In this document: positions 2,623 through 61,088 of the stretch, one piece after another | Layout of the letters: each line of letters opens with the position of its first letter | Position numbering within the stretch: the stretch's first letter is position 1 | Assembly (NCBI GenBank): GCA_951406725.2 | Contig: OX597835.1 | Coordinates: forward strand, 46,686,001-46,750,000 | DNA length: 64,000 bases | Reading direction: 5' to 3' | Source of the DNA: Octopus vulgaris | Taxonomy: Eukaryota | Notes under the pieces: model-generated | Seen by the model: only the letters and a program-made list of their open reading frames with translations | The model's database searches: none | Told to the model about the DNA's origin: nothing | Translations under genes and position numbers: made by a program

Positions 2623-2782
2623 GCGCAGGAGTGGCTGTGTGGCATGTAGCTTGCTTACCAAACACACGGTTCCGGGTTCAGTCCCACTGCGTGGCATCTT
2701 GGGCAAGTGTCTTCTGCTATAGCCCCGGGCCGACCAATGCCTTGTGAGTGGATTTGGTAGACGGAAACTGAAAAAGCCTGTC

Positions 2783-2825
<43 letters not shown>

Positions 2826-3052
2826 TGTGTGTGTATATGTTTGTGTGTCTGTGTTTGTCCCCCTAGCATTGCTTGACAACCGATGCTGGTGTGTTTACGT
2901 CCCCGTCACTTAGCGGTTCGACAAAAGAGACCGATAGAATAAGTACTGGGCTTACAAAGAATAAGTCCCGGGGTCGATTTGCTCGACTAAAGGCGGTGCT
3001 CCAGCATGGCCGCAGTCAAATGACTGAAACAAGTAAAAGAGTAAAAGAGTAA
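2623..3052 (+). mobile_element. tRNA-derived SINE, family A (full length)
   Basis: Head GCGCAGGAGTGGCTGTGTGG...CCGGGTTCAGTCCC (A/B-box-like), internal (TA)n/(TG)n, body ...AATAAGTAC...GGGGTCGAT..., tail (GTAAAAGA)n. Many near-identical copies in the window. Confidence 0.85.
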
Positions 3053-19607: not shown

Positions 19608-20529
19608 TGTACGTGCTTATGTATGCATGTGTGTGTTTCTTCTCTCCGCCATCGCTAAATCGGTGTTGGTTTGTTTACGCCACGTAGCATAACATTTCCG
19701 CAAAAAGAGACCGATGAATTTAGTACCGGACTTTAAAATTTTGGATTAGAAGTAATGGTTTTAGGGATTGTCTACCTAGCTAATTTGCTTATTGGGGTAG
19801 ATTCGTTAGACTAAATACTCTTCAACGCGGTGCCCCAGCATGGCCGCAGTCGAATAATTGAAACAAGTAAAAGATAAAAGAGATAAACAGTTTCATCTGT
19901 ATTCTTTCTACGTGTTTCGGTCCATGCTGGAGCACTGCCTTAAAGGGTGTTAACCGAAGAAATCGACCCCAGGACTTGTTCTATGCAAACCCAGTACTTA
20001 TTCTATCGGTCTCTTTGGCTGAACTGCTAGTTTACGGGGATATAAGCACACTAGCATCGGTTGTCAAGCGATGGCAGGTGAATCATTACTGGCTCTGTCT
20101 ACCTAATTTGAAACCGTTATCATTGGTGTTGGTATATTTTTAGTAATACTACTAACAATATAACAACAAGCAAGTGATTTGACCCGAGACTGCGGTGAAA
20201 AGAAGACTATTACAACGTGAAAGACCAATTTAAACCCTGGCATTTATTTCATAAACATTTATTTGGTGTCAAAATTCTCATCACATCAACTGCGACCAGG
20301 TCATCAACACGGTTCCTCTGACACGGTTCCATGCAGTGGAACCGTGCCAGGGGAACCGGGTCGAACTGTGACCAAGTCGCAGTTGATGCCACGAAAATTT
20401 TGACACTAAATGATAAATATTTAGGTGACGTCAACAGTTTTTGTGTGACTTTTGAATGAATAACACGTGTCTTGCAACCTGTAATTGTGTAATTGTTATG
20501 TATCCATACATACATTCATACATACACAC

Positions 20530-24463: not shown

Positions 24464-24627
24464 TTTCCTCTATTTACATAATATTGAGGTCTCTTTCTTT
24501 CTTTTGTTATCTTACTGTTTTTACCAATATACATATATATATATATATATAAATATATATATAGTTACAGAGATGTACTTGCATACCAAGTGACTTGATC
24601 TGAGATCGTGTGCTGGAACGAAAACAG

Positions 24628-24886
24628 TTGCAGCGTTGAAGGTGTTTATAAGCCATTTAAGAAACACACAAAAACCGTTAGATTCACTTCAACATTTAAA
24701 TTTAATTTGTCAAAATATTTTCGTCGCTTTGAGACCGCGACCTGTTAGCACGATATTTTTGTCAGTGAACAGGTCGCGGTCTGAAAGCGACGAAAATATT
24801 TTGGCAAATTAAATTTAAATGTTGAAGTGAATGTAACGGTTTTTGTGTGTTTCTTAAATGGCTTACAAACACCTTCCACGCTGCAA
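24628..24886. repeat. ~260 bp palindrome (119 bp arms, 21 nt spacer)
   Basis: 24628-24746 is the reverse complement of 24768-24886 with a few substitutions. Confidence 0.92.
24758..24808 (+). ncRNA. variant hammerhead ribozyme motif (G3-C8 core)
   Basis: TTTGTCA-GTGAACA-G-GTCGC(GGTCTGAAA)GCGAC-GAAA-ATAT-TT-TGGCAAA. Confidence 0.6.
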
Positions 24887-25229
24887 TATATATATACACA
24901 CATATATATATATGTATGTATGTATGTATGTGTGTATATGTGTATGCATGTATGTGTGTGTGTGTGCGTGTCTGTGCTTGTGATTGTCCTCCACCACTGC
25001 TTGACAACGAATGTTAGTTTGTTTACATCCCTGTCACCTAGTGGTTTGACAAAGGAAACAGATAGAATAAGTACAATGCTTACAAAAATAAAACTGGAGT
25101 TGATTCATTAAACTACAATTCTTCAAGGCATTGCCCCAGCATAGCCACAGACCAATGGCTGGAAAAAGCAGAAGAATAAAAGAATACATTCTCTGCTTTG
25201 GTCTTATGTTCAAGGCATGAGAAAGCTTG

Positions 25230-28553: not shown

Positions 28554-28596
<43 letters not shown>

Positions 28597-28624
28597 GAGA
28601 ATGAAGCAACAAGAATGGATAGGT

Positions 28625-28715
28625 TTTTAGTACAATCGTTTCATACAAGGACAGGTTTTATTAAAAGTTGCAAAAATTACAGCATATAAACGTGTCCCGT
28701 ACTCATCAGCTAAAA
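28625..28715 (-). ncRNA. minimal type I hammerhead ribozyme (inverted-arm copy)
   Basis: Reverse complement of 34235-34325. Confidence 0.85.
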
Positions 28716-29588
28716 TACATGTGAGTTCTCTAGACATCCTAGTGGTTGAGGCTATACTCATGAAGTAATGTAGATAATTAAGTAACATAAACAGATTTCA
28801 AAAGTTCATTAAAGTTCTTTAAAGATGATGTACAGTCTTATCACAGAATTTTAAAAAAGTCTTAATAGCATCACAGAGAAGGTGACCTAATCCATAGTGC
28901 ACATATGAATTTCCAGAGATATGATGAGGGATTACATACTCACAGAAGACAAATTTATCCATTGTTAATTACAACGAGGTGGGTTTCAATTCCTGCTTAT
29001 TAGCATTACAGAGAGGGTGAATTAATCCTTTGTATAGATGCACAATTTCCAATGGTGTAGGTGTAAATTTCCAAGGAATTTCATATTCACAGGCGATAAA
29101 TTTATCAATGGTTGAACACAATGAGGTAGGTATCAATTCTTGCTATATGATTAGGTATTTGCCACATTAATCACATTACTGCTATTTACAAGAGGCTGTA
29201 GCTATTTAACTTTTAAAGGCTGAAGGGCTTACTAGAGCTGTATAGAATAGAAAAGGGAAGGGCATAGAAGAAAAGAGAGAAAATAAAAGAGAGAAAATAA
29301 AAGAGGAGGGAGCAAAAAGGGGGGGAAAGGGGGACTCAAAGAGAAGAGAAAAGGAAAAAGAGAATAAGAAGAAGAAAAAGAAAAGAGAGAAAAGAGAAAG
29401 AAATAGGGAAGGAAGGGAAAAAAAGAAAAAGGAAGAAAAAAAGAAAAAAGAAGAAAGAAGAAAGAAGAAAGAAAAAGAAAAAAAGAGGGTTCTAGTTATA
29501 CAGAAGAATTAGTAGACGACAAGTCTGGTTTTAATTTACAGGCATCTAGGAATTAGAGGAGGATATTATTCTAGAGAACTCACATGTA

Positions 29589-29679
29589 TTTTAGCTGATG
29601 AGTACGGGACACGTTTATATGCTGTAATTTTTGCAACTTTTAATAAAACCTGTCCTTGTATGAAACGATTGTACTAAAA
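29589..29679 (+). ncRNA. minimal type I hammerhead ribozyme (5' pLTR copy)
   Basis: TTTTAG-CTGATGA-GTACGGGACA...TGTCCTTGTAT-GAAAC-GATT-GTA-CTAAAA; 6 bp stem I, extended stem II, predicted cleavage after 29673. Confidence 0.88.
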
Positions 29680-29881
29680 ACCTATCCATTCTTGTTGCTT
29701 CATTCTCGCTTATAATCACCCCACATTACTGTATTGTTAAATCAGTATAGTTTTTTTGGTGCATCTAAGTTAGGTACCATATTCAAGTAAATTCATTTAA
29801 ATTAACTTGAATCTTTATTGCTTTTTGAATATATTCCCATACAGTCTGTATGTTTTTCTGGTACTTAATTTCTCAGCAAGA

Positions 29882-32212
29882 ATGGAAAAAGTAAACATTG
29901 AGTTCTCCCCTAAAGACATCCCCTTACATAGTATAGATGAATATAATTGGCTTCTCATTCATAGGATTAACGATTTCATCAGAAGAATCAGGTGGAAAAC
30001 GTACCATTTTGATGTCAAACAGAAGAAGAAACCACAGGAAAGGAATACCGAAATGAATTTTAGAAGAATTTTTAAAAGTAGAAAAAGCCCACCTCAGAAC
30101 CCATTCCTGGAGAATTTTGAGAAAGACTTGCTGAATCTTATAGATGATATTAGCTTCAAGGAACACCCGTTAAGGTATAACCCTCACCTTAGACACCTTA
30201 GGAACTTTATTCAGTCAACCCGGTGCAAACATGGAATCCTAGTACCAGCAGATAAAACGGGTAATATGTATAGAGTTGATTACGATATTTATAGCAAATT
30301 AATTAGGAAAGAACTAAACTCCAAATATAAAATTACGACTAGGATTAATTTGAAAAAAGTAAACATGGAAATGAAAGAGATCATGGAAAAGCTAAATTTA
30401 ACGGATAGAACGGAGCCACTTAAACCGTGTGAGCCCAGGATCAACCTTAAAGACCACAAAAAGAACTTCTTGGAAAACCCTTCGGTAAGGCTGATCTGTC
30501 CAACTAGGTCGGACATTGGCCGACTTAGTAAATCTATCTTGGATACTGTTCTACCCCAAATAACCCCTCTTCTCCCCTTAAACCTATGGCTAAGTACCGA
30601 TGAAGTTCTAAAATGGTTTAACTCTCTAACTAATACTAGTAGTCTGTCCTTTATTCAGTTCGATATTAATAGTTATTACTCTAGCATTTCCCCTATCTTA
30701 CTCAACAAATCACTAATATTTGCCATGAATCGCTCCCTCATATCTAGAGAAGAAATCAATATTGTGCTACTAGCTAGGAAGACATTTATAGAATTTGAAG
30801 ATAAATTATGGACTAGAGCAGATACACCAAATTTTTTTGATATACCAATGGGTTCCAGTGATTCGGCTGAGGTAACCAACCTAGTAGGCGCATATCTATT
30901 AAAATGCATAAGCAAGGATATCCCAGAATTACAGGGGGGTCTATATAGGGATGATGCTCTGTTTGTTATCCCTAGTAATAATAAATCTGTTATAGAAAGG
31001 ATTAGAAAGAAAATTAATAAGTTCTTTAGGGATTTCAACCTCAGTATAACGTATGAACCGGGCACTAAAATAGTTAATTTCCTAGATACTACGCTAGACC
31101 TTAACTCCAAACTACATTACCCATTTAGAAAGGAAGGTGAAATCACGAATTACGTAAATAAATTATCAAATCATCCCCCAAATATTATAGAATCTTTAGT
31201 AAGAAATATTTCATTAAGAATTTCAAAATTATCATCCAATAAGGATATTTTTAACTCCCATTCTGAGCATTATAATGCGGCGTTAACTAAGGCTGGATAC
31301 AACCAAAAGATTACATTCGTTGATAAGGGGAACTCACGTATTCCTAATAATGAAGTTATCAATAATCACGTAAGCAGCAATAAAGTCCAAGCCCGAAATA
31401 AAAGTAGAATTAAACTAACGGTAAACGCTAATCTAGCGTACAGGCCCAACAATTCAAATAGAAACATTGACCAGAACATAGGTAACTCGGATAGTATTGA
31501 AGTAGATAAACCTAAGATGCACACAAATAAAAATAAAAATAATGGTAATAAATACAATAACTCCGGTGAGATGAATAGTAATAATTCTACGAACCCTAAA
31601 TTTAATAAAAAAGATATATTATGGCTGAATATTCCTTTCAACTGTGCGATACAATCGGATATACAGAACAAATTCAAAGTGATTCTGGAAAAAAATTTCC
31701 CTATCTCTCATAGATATCATAGAATTATTTCTAGGAAAACAGTTAGGATTTCTTATTCAACCCTCCCAAATATGTCCACTTTAATAGCTAAGATTAATAA
31801 TAACAACATTAAACTAGCCAGGAAAGATAGAAATATAAATAATAATAATAATAATAATAATAATATCAGCATGAATACCAATAGAAATTGTAATAATACT
31901 ACCAACAATAAAAACAGCAATAGTAACTATCAAAACATAGGTGAAATTAGTAACCACAGAATGACTAATAACATTAACATTAATAGTAATAATAGCAATG
32001 CCGATATTAGTAGAAGTAATAATGTTAATAATAGAAATAATAGAAATAGGGAAAATAGAGAAAATAAGGAGAATGAAAATATTAGTGATATCTATAACAA
32101 CAAGATGCAGTCGGATAAAAAGACTAGCAATAATATTAACATTACCAATAATATAAGAAATCATGGTAGGACTTTAGATCTAAATAATGAAACAGAAAGG
32201 ATCAAGAAATAA
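29882..32212 (+). CDS. Penelope-like reverse transcriptase with Asn-rich C-terminal linker
   Basis: The frame is open from 29807; first ATG at 29882 (MEKVNIEF). PLE RT motifs: ADKTG, LKDHK, RLICP, FIQFDINSYYSSI (motif A), PMGSSDSAEVTNL (motif B), YRDD (motif C), FLDTTL, YVNKLSNHPPNI. Confidence 0.93.
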   Translation: MEKVNIEFSPKDIPLHSIDEYNWLLIHRINDFIRRIRWKTYHFDVKQKKKPQERNTEMNFRRIFKSRKSPPQNPFLENFEKDLLNLIDDISFKEHPLRYNPHLRHLRNFIQSTRCKHGILVPADKTGNMYRVDYDIYSKLIRKELNSKYKITTRINLKKVNMEMKEIMEKLNLTDRTEPLKPCEPRINLKDHKKNFLENPSVRLICPTRSDIGRLSKSILDTVLPQITPLLPLNLWLSTDEVLKWFNSLTNTSSLSFIQFDINSYYSSISPILLNKSLIFAMNRSLISREEINIVLLARKTFIEFEDKLWTRADTPNFFDIPMGSSDSAEVTNLVGAYLLKCISKDIPELQGGLYRDDALFVIPSNNKSVIERIRKKINKFFRDFNLSITYEPGTKIVNFLDTTLDLNSKLHYPFRKEGEITNYVNKLSNHPPNIIESLVRNISLRISKLSSNKDIFNSHSEHYNAALTKAGYNQKITFVDKGNSRIPNNEVINNHVSSNKVQARNKSRIKLTVNANLAYRPNNSNRNIDQNIGNSDSIEVDKPKMHTNKNKNNGNKYNNSGEMNSNNSTNPKFNKKDILWLNIPFNCAIQSDIQNKFKVILEKNFPISHRYHRIISRKTVRISYSTLPNMSTLIAKINNNNIKLARKDRNINNNNNNNNNISMNTNRNCNNTTNNKNSNSNYQNIGEISNHRMTNNININSNNSNADISRSNNVNNRNNRNRENRENKENENISDIYNNKMQSDKKTSNNINITNNIRNHGRTLDLNNETERIKK

Positions 32213-32744
32213 TAGCAATACTTTAGATATCAGCACCAACTATAGAAATGATAATCAAAATAATAGGAACCTAAAACATCTACCCAAGAATAATCCAAAG
32301 CCTGAAGGTGTTCCTCCTGTGTGTAAGTGTAGAATAAAATCAAAATGCCCGGCACCTGGTCTATGTGGAGAAAATAATGTAATCTATAAATGTACCATAT
32401 CCACGGAGAATAACAAATATTATTACATTGGATGTACAATTAATTTTTTAGCTAGAGTTAGAAATCACATCTCGACTTTTAAATTACGTCATAAAGCTGG
32501 TACCACCACACTTTCAAACAAAATCTGGGAACTCAAAAATAATAATAAAAATTATAACCTTAATTGGGAAATAGTTAGGAGAGCAATTCCGTATAAAAAT
32601 AGTAGGGTTGGTTGCCAACTATGCTCCATGGAGACATATGAAATTCTAAAGCATAGAAAACATAGAAACCTATTGAATAACCATATCGAACTAGGTCAAG
32701 TTTGTGTCCACGCTAAATTGAAGACTTTAAAATATTTTAAATGA
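32187..32744 (+). CDS. Penelope-like GIY-YIG endonuclease with Cys/His motifs (+1 frame relative to RT)
   Basis: CKC..K.KCP..G.C...NVIYKCTI...YYYIGCT...ARVRNH...F...TTLSNKIWELK...CQLC..E...LLN...CVH. Confidence 0.9.
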   Translation: MKQKGSRNNSNTLDISTNYRNDNQNNRNLKHLPKNNPKPEGVPPVCKCRIKSKCPAPGLCGENNVIYKCTISTENNKYYYIGCTINFLARVRNHISTFKLRHKAGTTTLSNKIWELKNNNKNYNLNWEIVRRAIPYKNSRVGCQLCSMETYEILKHRKHRNLLNNHIELGQVCVHAKLKTLKYFK

Positions 32745-34234
32745 TTAGAATATTCGTAACTAGATAGTTAGATATAACCTGATTTCTACTGGTATAGCAC
32801 TGCTTTAAGTAGATAACTAAGAGTTCTCACACTACAGTTATCTTTTTCCTATATCTGCATCAGTTTTTTGAGAACAGGGAAATGAATAGCACTTATTCGC
32901 TGCTTAATTGAGGCTTTATTTAATTTCAAACTCACAATTTTTAAATTTTTAAATTCTTAATTTTAAATCTTAATTGTAATTTTTAATTTTAGTTCCTAAC
33001 TTAATCTAATTTAATTAGCATAACTCTAATTAATTAAAATGAGTTACTATAGACCCATAATTCTATTTCAAAATTAAATAAATGAGACTATTCCCTCGGT
33101 GATAATATGATTATCTTCATTATGATAGACAATCCCCTAACACCTTTTAAATGATCTTCTAAGATTTGACCTGTAGTCCGTCAATGTATGAATAATAACG
33201 GCAACTCCTTAAGACAATAAAATGAATAAATTAAATAAGTAAATTTTAATGACTTTTTGATAAGATTATACCTAGTTTTCCCTAATGTATTTTCTGGTGA
33301 TTTTAGCATCTGACCCCGAAACCCCTAACTGTGTTATCTCTTTAGATTCTCTTTAAATTCATAGCTGATTTCAACAGCAATAAATTAGCTGTTTTAACTG
33401 GTCAAAGAATAATATCCTCCTCTAATTCCTAGATGCCTGTAAATTAAAACCAGACTTGTCGTCTACTAATTCTTCTGTATAACTAGAACCCTCTTTTTTT
33501 CTTTTTCTTTCTTCTTTTTTCTTTTTTTCTTCCTTTTTCTTTTTTTCCCTTCCTTCCCTATTTCTTTCTCTTTTCTCTCTTTTCTTTTTCTTCTTCTTAT
33601 TCTCTTTTTCCTTTTCTCTTCTCTTTGAGTCCCCCTTTCCCCCCCTTTTTGCTCCCTCCTCTTTTATTTTCTCTCTTTTCTTCTATGCCCTTCCCTTTTC
33701 TATTCTATACAGCTCTAGTAAGCCCTTCAGCCTTTAAAAGTTAAATAGCTACAGCCTCTTGTAAATAGCAGTAATGTGATTAATGTGGCAAATACCTAAT
33801 CATATAGCAAGAATTGATACCTACCTCATTGTGTTCAACCATTGATAAATTTATCGCCTGTGAATATGAAATTCCTTGGAAATTTACACCTACACCATTG
33901 GAAATTGTGCATCTATACAAAGGATTAATTCACCCTCTCTGTAATGCTAATAAGCAGGAATTGAAACCCACCTCGTTGTAATTAACAATGGATAAATTTG
34001 TCTTCTGTGAGTATGTAATCCCTCATCATATCTCTGGAAATTCATATGTGCACTATGGATTAAGTCACCTTCTCTGTGATGCTATTAAGACTTTTTTAAA
34101 ATTCTGTGATAAGACTGTACATCATCTTTAAAGAACTTTAATGAACTTTTGAAATCTGTTTATGTTACTTAATTATCTACATTACTTCATGAGTATAGCC
34201 TCAACCACTAGGATGTCTAGAGAACTCACATGTA

Positions 34235-34325
34235 TTTTAGCTGATGAGTACGGGACACGTTTATATGCTGTAATTTTTGCAACTTTTAATAAAACCTGTC
34301 CTTGTATGAAACGATTGTACTAAAA
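34235..34325 (+). ncRNA. minimal type I hammerhead ribozyme (3' pLTR copy)
   Basis: Same sequence as 29589-29679; predicted cleavage after 34319. Confidence 0.88.
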
Positions 34326-34469
34326 ACCTATCCATTCTTGTTGCTTCATTCTCGCTTATAATCACCCCACATTACTGTATTGTTAAATCAGTATAGTTTT
34401 TTTTGGTGCATCTAAGTTAGGTACCATATTCAAGTAAATTCATTTAAATTAACTTGAATCTTTATTGCT

Positions 34470-34506
<37 letters not shown>

Positions 34507-41408: not shown

Positions 41409-41628
41409 ACAATAATAAATCCCTGAACAAGATATAAACAGTAACTGCTCTATAACGTAAAGGGGATCAGCCATCTGAATGTGGCTAGGGACAGGGCGGG
41501 GTGGTGGGGGTGTTACTGATGCTTTTAGCCCCAGGCGATCATCGACGTCACCAGAAGGACCGATACCATATCGGTGTCCTTGTTTGCCTGTAAAGGGAGA
41601 TCATCCTCCCTCGAAGATACGAATACTA

Positions 41629-41671
41629 CATACGGACTGGTTTCGAGGTCATTGCCTCTTATCAACGCATG
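41629..41671 (-). ncRNA. variant hammerhead ribozyme motif (U3-A8 core), inverted-arm copy
   Basis: Minus strand CATGCG-TTGATAA-GAGG(CAATGA)CCTC-GAAA-CCAG-TC-CGTATG. Confidence 0.75.
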
Positions 41672-41776
41672 GTAAGCACCGTTCCTCGATGAAGGATTCC
41701 CTCTACAGGCAACATATATAAGGTTTTTCACAGTAACCACCGTCACTGATGTAGAAAAACCGTCAACGGTGCTTAC

Positions 41777-41819
41777 CATGCGTTGATAAGAGGCAATGAC
41801 CTCGAAACCGGTCCGTATG
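41777..41819 (+). ncRNA. variant hammerhead ribozyme motif (U3-A8 core)
   Basis: CATGCG-TTGATAA-GAGG(CAATGA)CCTC-GAAA-CCGG-TC-CGTATG; palindromic tetraloop CCGG; predicted cleavage after 41813. Confidence 0.82.
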
Positions 41820-41992
41820 TAGTATTCGTATCTTCGAGGGAGGATGATCTCCCTTTACATGCAAACAAGGACACCGATATGGTGTCGGTCCTTCTGGTGA
41901 CGTCGATGATCGCCTGGAGCTAAAAGCATCAGTAACACCCCCACCACCCCGCCCTGTCCCTAGCCACATTCAGATGGCTGATCCCTCTTACG

Positions 41993-42129
<137 letters not shown>

Positions 42130-42230
42130 GGCAAGTGTCTTCTGCTATAGCCCCGGCGCGACCAATGCCTTGTGAGTGGGTTTGATAGACGGAAACTGAA
42201 AGAAGGTCGTCGTATATATACATAAATACA

Positions 42231-42733
<503 letters not shown>

Positions 42734-42821
42734 AATATATGTATATATATATCAAGTTGATGGACATATAACAACGTCAGCCGACACTAAAAATCTATAG
42801 GGAGACATATCTTTATTGATA

Positions 42822-42864
42822 TACCTGATTAGACTTAGACTGTTAAGTCGAAACATATGTTGTA
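42822..42864 (+). ncRNA. hammerhead-like motif with U at core position 8
   Basis: TAC-CTGATTA-GACTTA(GACTGT)TAAGTC-GAAAC-ATAT-GTT-GTA. Confidence 0.65.
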
Positions 42865-42929
42865 CCAAATAAAGATCTAATACCGAATCCATCTCTTGAT
42901 ATCTTGGTATTTAATACATACATACATAG

Positions 42930-43716: not shown

Positions 43717-44046
43717 TCATTGGTATGAGAGAAAGGTATGCTTTTTCCAGTGTAGGCATCTGAAAGAACTCTCAACAATCGAGTTTATTAGTCGGCCTCG
43801 GGCAAACAGAATATGAAAGAGTTCGGAATTACATAAGGCACATATTTTTTTGCTCTTATCAAACGGTAAAGACACCGATAATATTGACCATTCCAGCCTA
43901 AAAGTTGAATTTGCGTTCTTCAAACGCCAGACTAATTTGCTTAGCCCAGTGGAGTGTTGTTTCCTTTTATCCCTAAACGTGGAAAAATGATTTGATATTC
44001 TTGTGGCTAATTTAGATGAGGTAGCGCCGATATAGATTTTATGCCC
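43717..44046 (-). pseudogene. GIY-YIG endonuclease fragment of a second PLE family
   Basis: My translation upstream of the listed ORF gives GHKIYIGATSSKLATRISNHFSTFRDKRKQHSTGLSKLVWRLKNANSTFRLEWSIL...ICALCNSELFHIL...LINS...CLHWKK, colinear with 32187-32744. Confidence 0.88.
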
Positions 44047-55550: not shown

Positions 55551-55571
55551 ACATATTGTATATGGCTCTTC

Positions 55572-55803
55572 CTCTTTTACTTGTTTCAGTCATTTGACTG
55601 CGGCCATGCTGGAGCACCGCCTTTAATCGAGCAAATCAATCCCAGGACTTATTCCTTGTAAGCCTAGTACTTATTCTATCGGTCTCTTTTACCGAACCGC
55701 TAAGTTACGGGGGCGTAAACACACCAGCATCGGTTGTTAAGCGATGCTGGGGGACAAACACAGACACACAAACATATACAGACACATACATACATATATA
55801 TAC

Positions 55804-55855
<52 letters not shown>

Positions 55856-56017
55856 GACGGCTTTCTTTCAGTTTCCGTCTACCAAATCCACTCACAAGGC
55901 ATTGGTCGGCCCGAGGCTATAGCAGAAGACACTTGCCCAAGGTGCCACGCAGTGGGACTGAACCCGGAACCATGTGGTTGGTAAGCAAGCTACTTACCAC
56001 ACAGCCACTCCTACGCC
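55572..56017 (-). mobile_element. tRNA-derived SINE, family A (full length)
   Basis: Reverse complement of 2623-3052. Confidence 0.85.
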
Positions 56018-56079
56018 TATATATATATTTTATTTACATGACACCATTTAGTCAGCTAAATAGGTATAATTTTTTTCTT

Positions 56080-59228: not shown

Positions 59229-59374
59229 TACATACATACGCATATACATACATACATACATATCGTGTTGATGTTGTTGAAATTCCAATGAAGGAACCTT
59301 AGATCTAGGTTAGAAACCGGCTCTTTCTCTTTTGGCAAGAAATCTTGAAATGCACCGAATAATGATATAAATAG

Positions 59375-59650
59375 CTCGCTTCCCAACCGCATGGTTCCGG
59401 GTTCAGTTCCACTGCGTGGCACCTTCGGCAAGTGTCTTCTACTATAACCTCGGGCTGACCAAAGCCTTGCGAGTGGATTTGGTAAACGGAAATTGAAAGA
59501 AGCTTGTCGTATATATATGTGTGCGTGTGTGTGTACATACTTGTGTGTTTGTGTCTGTGTCCCTCAACCATCGTTTGACAACCGATGTTGGTGTGTTTAT
59601 GCCCCCGTAACTTAACGGTTCGGCAAAAGAGACCCGATAGAATAAGTACT
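59375..59650 (+). mobile_element. SINE family A (partial)
   Basis: Homology to 2623-3052. Confidence 0.8.
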
Positions 59651-59652
59651 AG

Positions 59653-60038
59653 TCTTTTACTTGTTTCAGTCATTTGACTGCGGCCATGCTAGAGCACCGC
59701 CTTTAGTCGAGCAAATAGACCCAAGGACTTATTCTTTGGATGCCTAGTACTTATTCTATCGATCTCTTTTGCCGACCCGCTAAGTTACGGGGACGTAAAC
59801 ACACCACCATCGGTTGTCAAGCGATGTTGGAGGGACAAACACAGACACACAAACATATACACGCATACATATATATACATATATACGACGGGCTTCTTTC
59901 AGTTTCCGTCTACCAAATCCACTCACAAGGCTTTTGTCGGCCCGAGTCTATAGTAGAAGACACTTGCCCAAGGTGCCACGCAATGGGATTGAACTCGGAA
60001 CCATGTGATTTGTAAGCAAGCTACTTACCACACAGCCA
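59653..60038 (-). mobile_element. SINE family A
   Basis: Reverse-complement homology; abuts the previous copy tail-to-tail. Confidence 0.8.
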
Positions 60039-60170: not shown

Positions 60171-60389
60171 TGTTATCGTCAAACAGATGAGATCGAGAGA
60201 ATGCCAATACAGAAAGCATTTCGTAGCGCTCAGATGATTTGAACTTAGACTCCGATATCTTCACCGAGGACCAAGTCAGCAGAGTAAAGAGTAGCTCTAA
60301 GGGGAATCCCAGTGAGGAGATATGGAAACAAAGACCCAAATAACCAGATTAAGACCGAGGGTTTAAATGTACACAAAATACATTCATGT

Positions 60390-61088
60390 CTGCTGCTGGA
60401 GAGGACCGATCAGGTAAAGGACCTAGGTATCTTGGTGGATTCCTCCTTTTCGCCTTCGGCCCAGTGCGTCCATACTGCCAACAAAGCACGCGGAATTCTG
60501 TTCTTGATTCGACGGTCATTCGGAATGCTCACAGCAGCCATATTCCTACCACTCTATGTCACGCTGGTGAGACCCATATTGGAGTACGGGATTCAAGCCA
60601 CTTCTCCTTATCTCCTCAAAGACATACAGCATCTCGAAAGAGTCCAGAAGCTGGCTACCCGCATGGTTCATGGTCTCAAAAATTTTTCCTATGAAGAAAG
60701 GCTGAGGACGCTCGACCTTTATTCTCTAGAAAAACGCCGCCGCCGATCTCATTCTCGCACACAACATCATAAGCGGAAAGTGTAACCTCTCGAAAGAGCT
60801 GTTCTTCACTCCTGCTCTAGAGCGTCGGCTGCGGGGTCATTCCGAAAAGCTCTACCTGCGACGATTTCATCTCAAACGAAGGAGAGGAGCTTTCTCCGTC
60901 CGGGTTGCGGATCCGTGGAACAAGCTGCCAGACGAGATGGTGAAGATGCCGACGACCGCTTTGTTCAAAGCCTCCCTTGACTTCAAGTGGCCTGAACTCT
61001 TTACATGAACACCACCCTGTACTTAACTCCATGTCCCCCTACATGGCCTTGCTATTTGCTTTTAAGCCAAATTAACTAACTAACTAAC
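60390..61088 (+). mobile_element. 5'-truncated CR1-like LINE (RT C-terminal region, 3' UTR, (AACT)n tail)
   Basis: VKDLGILVD...ANKARGIL..IRRSF...LYVTLVRPILEYG...LERVQKLATRMV.GL...YEERL..LDLYSLEKRR; after a frameshift RGH...FSVRVADPWNKLP...FKASLD; stop at 61006-61008; tail AACTAACTAACTAAC. Confidence 0.92.

Follow-up and report, generated by a model that had tools for sequence, protein, structure and literature searches.

The palindrome at positions 24628-24886 of the window (the whole stretch of 64,000 nucleotides that was analysed, a piece of microsatellite-rich animal DNA) consists of a head-to-head pair of copies of one high-copy repeat: a near-complete right copy and an inverted left copy that is truncated at its 5' end. 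On balance, a short high-copy repeat probably inserted here head-to-head. This repeat is likely a Penelope-like retroelement of the non-autonomous type and carries a predicted slow-cleaving hammerhead ribozyme with G3-C8 as its core pair. Its arms (24628-24746 and 24768-24886) are 119 nt each and 96% complementary, with 5 mismatches and 21 nt between them, and the layout from left to right is (TA)n, a tail of 40-64 nt, the inverted arm, the other arm and (TA)n. The first-pass annotation had given 24628 as the left limit; the insertion runs 40-64 nt further to the left. The parts of the locus are as follows:

24527-24563, unstranded: (TA)n-rich run forming the left boundary, the putative insertion target as judged from sequence
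24564-24627, minus strand: extra 3' tail (40-64 nt) of the left copy, missing from the right copy
24628-24746, minus strand: inverted, 5'-truncated left copy, beginning at core position A6
24747-24757, plus strand: 5' part of the right-hand copy, altered compared to the family
24758-24764, plus strand: stem I, 5' strand
24765-24772, plus strand: core G3-U4-G5-A6-A7-C8-A9 and one extra G before stem II
24773-24791, plus strand: stem II (5 bp, with G10.1-C11.1) and the 9-nt loop II
24792-24801, plus strand: GAAA, the self-complementary 6-nt A15.1-U16.1 segment (dimer-type stem III) and U17
24802-24808, plus strand: stem I, 3' strand
24809-24886, plus strand: AU-rich downstream part, terminating in a short 3' end
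24887-24912, unstranded: (TA)n-rich run forming the right boundary (sequence)

Within the tail, 24588-24627 resembles the outer left end (about 20172-20205) of a diverged relative of the palindrome in the same window, referred to below as relative B, while 24564-24587, which adjoins the (TA)n run, is counted as tail by position alone. The tail is found on the left end only and has the same polarity in relative B, a comparison of two loci; its 40-64 nt compare with 30-40 bp for published Penelope tails. A short hairpin can be read in its sequence near 24588-24598. Any target duplication would be unreadable within the (TA)n flanks. Directly after the microsatellite on the right lies a copy (24934-25186) of a very frequent dispersed repeat of about 400 bp, which we take to be SINE-like. 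This repeat is also present at about 15 other places in the window (e.g., 2623-3052, 55566-56028 and 59650-60038), and two palindromes (59368-60027 and 41994-42366) partly coincide with copies of it.

A type I hammerhead pattern occupies 24758-24808 on the plus strand. All the pieces that had been named in the first-pass annotation (stems I and II, GTGAACA, G, GAAA, ATAT and TT) are present on this strand: a stem I of 7 bp with one G-U (24758-24764/24802-24808), the core GTGAACA at 24765-24771 followed by the extra G at 24772, a stem II of 5 bp with G10.1-C11.1 (24773-24777/24787-24791), and GAAA at 24792-24795, after which come ATAT and TT; the bond predicted to be cut follows 24801. The perfect stem I partner that it had located in the left arm is there as well, with an A in the place of G24804 of the right arm. 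Since the left copy begins at A6, it has neither G3-U4-G5 nor the 5' strand of stem I, and the locus holds one complete motif, as had been stated. The core letters U4, G5, A6, A9, G12, A13, A14, A15.1-U16.1, H17 and G10.1-C11.1 are all present, whereas the consensus C3 and G8 are replaced by G3 and C8. Positions 3 and 8 are thus Watson-Crick complementary in the sequence and would be expected to pair as G-C. An extra base after A9 and a palindromic segment between positions 15 and 16 (here a 6-nt palindrome) are shared with the minimal hammerheads of Penelope elements.

When the segment 24755-24812 (58 nt) was folded in isolation, stem I and stem II were predicted with probabilities of 0.93 and 0.98, respectively (z = -1.9). 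The 5' bases of this particular copy lower the predicted probability of stem I from 0.93 to 0.04-0.12, and in the full palindrome it is predicted to be 0. According to the predictions, 24747-24757 together with 24758-24762 are able to pair with 24789-24800, rivalling the hammerhead fold, and the minimum-energy structure of the locus is a long hairpin of -191.8 kcal/mol. Since the ribozyme fold is predicted to lose out to the pairing of the arms and of the altered 5' part, this genomic copy is most likely a silent fossil. The motif itself is filed as a predicted variant of the Penelope minimal hammerhead and not as a proven member, because it departs from the C3/G8 consensus, has no Rfam hammerhead match and no partner ORF was found for it.

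The chance level of such a pattern was estimated with a permissive descriptor that accepts any Watson-Crick 3-8 pair and 0-1 extra base, using 60 block-wise dinucleotide shuffles of the 64-kb window as null set. In the 60 shuffled windows there were 3 matches in total (0.05 per window), none of which was as strict as the palindrome motif. The real window contained 5 matches, all of them in Penelope-like architecture:

Descriptor matches: the palindrome motif (G3-C8); C3-G8 hammerheads at 28709 (minus strand), 29595 and 34241; a U3-A8 hammerhead at 41783

Against the Rfam hammerhead models the palindrome motif gave no match at E<=10, and hammerhead controls from the window scored 23.7 and 18.4 bits, both below gathering. 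No match at all was obtained for the whole window at the Rfam gathering scores, and the best Rfam matches over the palindrome were miRNA hairpins, all below these scores. Patterns describing the family retrieved one unrelated chance match in metagenome contigs and none in prokaryote genomes or viral contigs. A shorter pattern of its 5' part gave 103 viral matches, none continuing into stem II and GAAA. For one stem II class in viral contigs, a fold test was passed by 138 of the 145 C3-G8 matches listed (at least 145 in all) and by only 2 of all 12 G3-C8 matches, which looks like chance. Within the window, neither a partner ORF for the palindrome family nor homology of the family to the pLTR of an RT/GIY-YIG ORF was found. 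Two further candidates gained no support: a 31-aa frame in the 3' part of the family, considered as the N-terminus of a partner ORF, was rejected, having an unrelated repeat protein (41%) as its sole match, and strings of the family, considered as the end of a cephalopod Naiad element, had no related match in the available part of the supplement of Craig et al. (PMC8557442), a file in which 70-letter line breaks can hide matches.

Contigs of four sequencing runs with four organism labels were aligned on 24735-24886. Between 5,063 and 12,903 contigs per run were placed on this segment, numbers that are not copy counts and that come from runs of which three are possible sources of the window itself. 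The first-pass annotation missed this high-copy Penelope-type repeat. Sixteen variants at 14 places reached 3%, none of which was located in 24757-24780 or 24792-24803, and across thousands of contigs no core variant reached this level. Loop II varied at 3 of 9 positions. Position 24804, G in this copy, is A in 52-77% of the depth in all four runs; both letters pair with U24762, and the majority A gives a perfect stem I. Three of the four stem variants preserve pairing. Among the three CpG-type variants of stem II, two yield G-U and one (24789 G>A, 3.6-5.7%) breaks the pair. The proposal that the core is fixed across copies was borne out in so far as none of 11 core positions vary; as a check on the ribozyme it carries little weight, given that 7 of 78 downstream positions do (P=0.59). 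The comparison with loop II (0/11 versus 3/9) gave P=0.07, and depth over the core was only 19-45% of its peak. Conservation of the core within the family is therefore not significantly above that of the flanks.

The same alignments delimit the repeat unit. In all four runs, the loose ends found before 24757 lead into one and the same 14-letter motif, with an agreement of only 0.50-0.54 over the 30 letters shown; many family copies begin about 14 nt upstream of stem I. The stretch between the arms, described in the first-pass annotation as a spacer holding part of the core, is therefore mostly the 5' part of the right-hand copy and thus of the repeat unit, which would span roughly 190-210 nt and is non-coding. 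Among the 15 joints listed out of 34, eight connect the 5' part with an inverted copy whose truncation lies at 24789-24813; head-to-head junctions of this kind thus recur with variable breakpoints. In six of these eight, the inverted copy breaks off at 24805-24813, immediately 3' of the predicted cut; because stem I complementarity alone could place truncations there, they were not used as evidence for cleavage. One deep joint from 24878 to 24753 (depth 1587, in one of the four runs, X4) is best read as putative head-to-tail copies. Loose ends were also seen at 24803 and 24805 in several of the runs X2, X4, X5 and X6; they suggest that a subfamily has two bases inserted into the 3' strand of stem I, a state similar to that of relative B in this place.

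Relative B offers a view of the family at a greater distance:

20172-20490, unstranded: older, decayed head-to-head pair, with a G3-C8 core at 20368 on the plus strand and a tail on the left arm

Its arms are 84% complementary, and downstream of the motif it is identical to the palindrome at 51 of 76 positions (67%). All 13 core letters, G3 and C8 among them, are preserved in the right arm; the chance probability of this is about 0.004-0.01 at 65-70% identity, not counting the bias that comes from relative B having been found by BLAST over the same region. Changes in this arm affect N7, the extra base and loop II, and the palindromic segment is 4 nt long (6 in the palindrome) and still self-complementary. 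In stem I of the left arm, a U-A pair has been exchanged for G-C, one compensatory pair relative to the palindrome. Relative B is not an intact ribozyme, since its left arm preserves only 9 of 13 core letters and its right arm has 4 extra bases between stem I and G3. In its centre (20304-20364) a 14-nt unit is tandemly duplicated in each arm, and a shared palindromic TGCA, with which both arms start, is found where the two copies meet.

Hammerheads are also present in two further inverted elements of the window:

28590-34481: Penelope-like element that is almost intact, bounded by (TA)n on both sides
41409-41997: second palindromic repeat (palindrome 41451-41997), with a U3-A8 hammerhead in both arms

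The first of these contains a two-frame ORF (29801-32744) with a GIY-YIG match below the cut-off, direct repeats at 29570-29834 and 34216-34481, and an inverted 5'-truncated copy (28590-29572) adjoining the upstream repeat, with ends that differ by 120 nt. Craig et al. (PMC8557442) describe this layout for Penelope elements. Its three type I hammerheads are of the C3-G8 kind and have a long stem II extension (about 46-54 nt). The RT part of the ORF had no match in Pfam or PDB, and the ORF belongs to a family of about 700-aa homologues, of which the closest named ones are Octopus sinensis proteins (86% and 69% identity over parts of the query), so that the host is probably an octopus. Based on this architecture, on the homologue family and on a likeness of motifs to Hydra alignments judged by eye, the element is classified as Penelope-like and, by eye, appears to be Hydra-like. 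The second repeat gave a weak Rfam HH9 match on its plus arm (23.7 bits, E 2e-4), carries a 42-nt tail on one arm and has (TA)n on both sides; it has no similarity to the family of the palindrome. The inverted layout is common to all three loci. Other remnants were also observed in the window. Between (TA)n runs, 42753-42915 holds a decayed hammerhead-like motif at 42825, with C3 and a T at position 8, a 7-bp stem II and a palindromic CATATG. An isolated fragment at 43732-44034 (minus strand) shares 39% identity with the GIY-YIG portion of the ORF in the Penelope-like element, and a short open frame at 60288-60785 resembles, by eye, a piece from the C-terminus of a LINE reverse transcriptase.

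According to Cervera & de la Pena (2014; PMC4209133), the minimal type I hammerheads of Penelope elements have a palindromic helix III, G10.1-C11.1 and an additional base following A9, are flanked by U-rich sequence on the 5' side and AU-rich sequence on the 3' side, and cleave poorly, slowly via dimer pairing. The palindrome motif resembles them in the extra base, in G10.1-C11.1, in the palindromic helix III and in the flanks, and also in its genomic arrangement, as they occur mostly as dispersed single motifs with pairs on opposite strands. A 2-nt palindromic insert in helix III is shared with the form from D. virilis (PMC4209133). The viroid that had been called upon as a precedent for the base inserted after A9 (G24772 here) is not needed, since an extra base at this place is the published norm in Penelope hammerheads. 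The differences concern the core, as the described motifs have the consensus CUGANGA and U3-A8 as the one core covariation reported in the part of PMC4209133 at hand, as opposed to G3-C8 here; the stem I of 7 bp; and the extra base itself, which is G here compared to H in their consensus. Motifs of the Hydra clade can have G at this place, among them one from Octopus bimaculoides.

Natural U3-A8 hammerheads have been reported by Perreault et al. (2011; PMC3088659) and in the Cercyon family of S. mansoni (PMC4209133). As in those (PMC3088659), the 3-8 tertiary pair in the palindrome motif would be preserved by a compensatory change. U3-A8 can be reached by transitions through a U-G wobble, whereas G3-C8 would need two transversions through a mismatch. 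Natural G3-C8 is not among the variants listed in the accessible parts of PMC3088659 and PMC4209133. The identical core pair has been engineered: C3G/G8C, also treated in PMC3884650, is partly active, with protein help, in a Poseidon-clade Penelope hammerhead, and the single changes between C3-G8 and G3-C8 abolish activity (Frangieh et al. 2024; PMC11167929). The statement in the first-pass annotation that the swap can retain activity is thus supported in a Penelope hammerhead. Unlike these laboratory mutants, the alleles described here are natural, fixed and present in high copy.

The form of the insertion has parallels, too. Penelope insertions come with inverted 5'-truncated copies and a one-sided tail, and the Hydra clade prefers (TA)n (Craig et al. 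2021; PMC8557442). The palindrome is similar to Hydra-clade elements and MRC1 in its (TA)n target, its inverted 5'-truncated copy and its one-sided tail, as well as in the position of the hammerhead (about 100-200 nt from the 3' end) and in belonging to a short non-autonomous family (PMC8557442). It differs in its core: all 34 hammerhead rows of File S2 of that study begin with ctga, and the core search behind them required cuganga. With the non-LTR retrozymes (PMC7229834; bioRxiv 10.64898/2026.07.22.740005), the family shares a small size, the lack of coding capacity, a type I hammerhead and a proposed dependence on Penelope. Retrozymes are defined by tandem arrays, canonical hammerheads and circular RNA, in contrast to the head-to-head pair observed here in the DNA.

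These elements can be combined into a mechanism. A master copy would be transcribed, at times as head-to-tail repeats, after which two motifs would pair via the self-complementary segment A15.1-U16.1; slow cleavage after 24801 would follow, which likely requires the dimer state or assistance by a Penelope protein. The protein of an autonomous Penelope element would then nick (TA)n DNA and reverse-transcribe from one of two internal start sites, which would yield the short end and the tailed end, respectively, and a template switch would leave an inverted 5'-truncated copy beside the first copy. The hammerhead reading of the first-pass annotation held up in the sequence-level tests run and counts as partly supported: it gains from the low chance rate, the absence of core variants at 3% or more, the Penelope-like context and the partial activity of C3G/G8C, and loses from core fixation that does not discriminate (P=0.59) and from the predicted misfolding of this copy in its own context.

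It may also be that the repeat is indeed derived from Penelope and that its hammerhead is a dead or merely structural relic, in which drift would have fixed G3-C8 in one or two master copies, and any role left to the motif would be that of a fold bound by protein. We regard this as unlikely, though of all the alternatives it deserves the most attention. In the part of PMC11167929 available, in vitro insertion by Penelope did not need hammerhead cleavage, and the poor cleavage of minimal Penelope hammerheads (PMC4209133) fits as well. The family is homogeneous almost everywhere, so that a fixed core would be expected without selection, and the lineage would have passed through a dead state, since the single steps from C3-G8 to G3-C8 abolish activity. 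On the other hand, when both C3 and G8 are lost, few of the possible combinations at positions 3 and 8 restore a Watson-Crick pair, and G3-C8 is among those that do. The other core letters, G10.1-C11.1 and the palindrome are also preserved both in the palindrome locus and in the right arm of relative B, despite a downstream divergence of about 33%.

Two other classes of explanation do not involve Penelope. MITEs have terminal inverted repeats, and Helitron2/Helentron elements have asymmetric inverted repeats and a 3' hairpin. The locus has features reminiscent of both: the 5' end of the family is complementary at 10 of 12 positions to 24873-24884, forming imperfect terminal inverted repeats of about 12 bp, both ends adjoin TA, the two arms of relative B share their palindromic TGCA start, and the tail contains the hairpin near 24588-24598. 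That the palindrome is such a non-autonomous DNA element, with an incidental or captured hammerhead-like fold, nevertheless seems improbable to us, because the long palindrome does not consist of terminal repeats but of inverted copies truncated at various points (24768 here, 24789-24813 in the family), a homologous tail is found at one end in both the palindrome and relative B, and hammerheads are present in the two further inverted elements of the window that were examined, one of which also has a Penelope-like ORF. In addition, the full descriptor is improbable by chance (0.05 per window). The same chance rate makes it very improbable that the locus is a plain genomic fold-back, serving as a dsRNA source or miRNA-like hairpin, with a coincidental hammerhead pattern. 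While the long minimum-energy hairpin (-191.8 kcal/mol) and the miRNA hairpins among the top Rfam matches, all below gathering scores, would suit a fold-back, the miRNA scores reflect only the perfect stem, and the motif is part of the repeat unit and is found again in relative B.

Returning to the Penelope-like reading, the novelty of its hammerhead lies in the G3-C8 core. What was already known comprises natural U3-A8 and the extra base, with G3-C8 found in the literature as an engineered mutant only. A full-text literature search, which covered work on small Penelope hammerhead variants in part, returned no natural G3-C8 hammerhead, and a full-text search likewise returned no cephalopod report of the family of the palindrome. 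In the available portions of the text and supplement of a paper on Octopus vulgaris repeats (PMC13282606), hammerheads and ribozymes are mentioned zero times. As the first-pass annotation had rightly remarked, standard CTGANGA searches miss the motif: published searches requiring CUGANGA cannot see the family of the palindrome, and the counts of Penelope hammerheads and the "no hammerhead" calls may therefore be incomplete.

It is quite possible, though somewhat less likely than not, that octopus genomes carry a high-copy Penelope-dependent family whose hammerhead has crossed the fitness valley from C3-G8 to G3-C8 and still cleaves. Should this tentative reading hold, the family would be the first with a natural G3-C8 hammerhead. 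C-G, U-A and G-C versions of the catalytic 3-8 pair would then stand side by side in one 64-kb window, and flipped cores of a similar kind may be concealed in Penelope families scored as hammerhead-free. The way to a natural G3-C8 core leads only through a mismatched state, which was inactive in mutant tests. Fixation of G3-C8 in a successful family with the rest of the core intact would show that the element survived without cleavage and that the pair was then restored. The role of the hammerhead in Penelope elements has been described as unknown in the available parts of PMC7761336 and PMC11167929, and a G3-C8 family would provide a ready natural experiment on what is selected.
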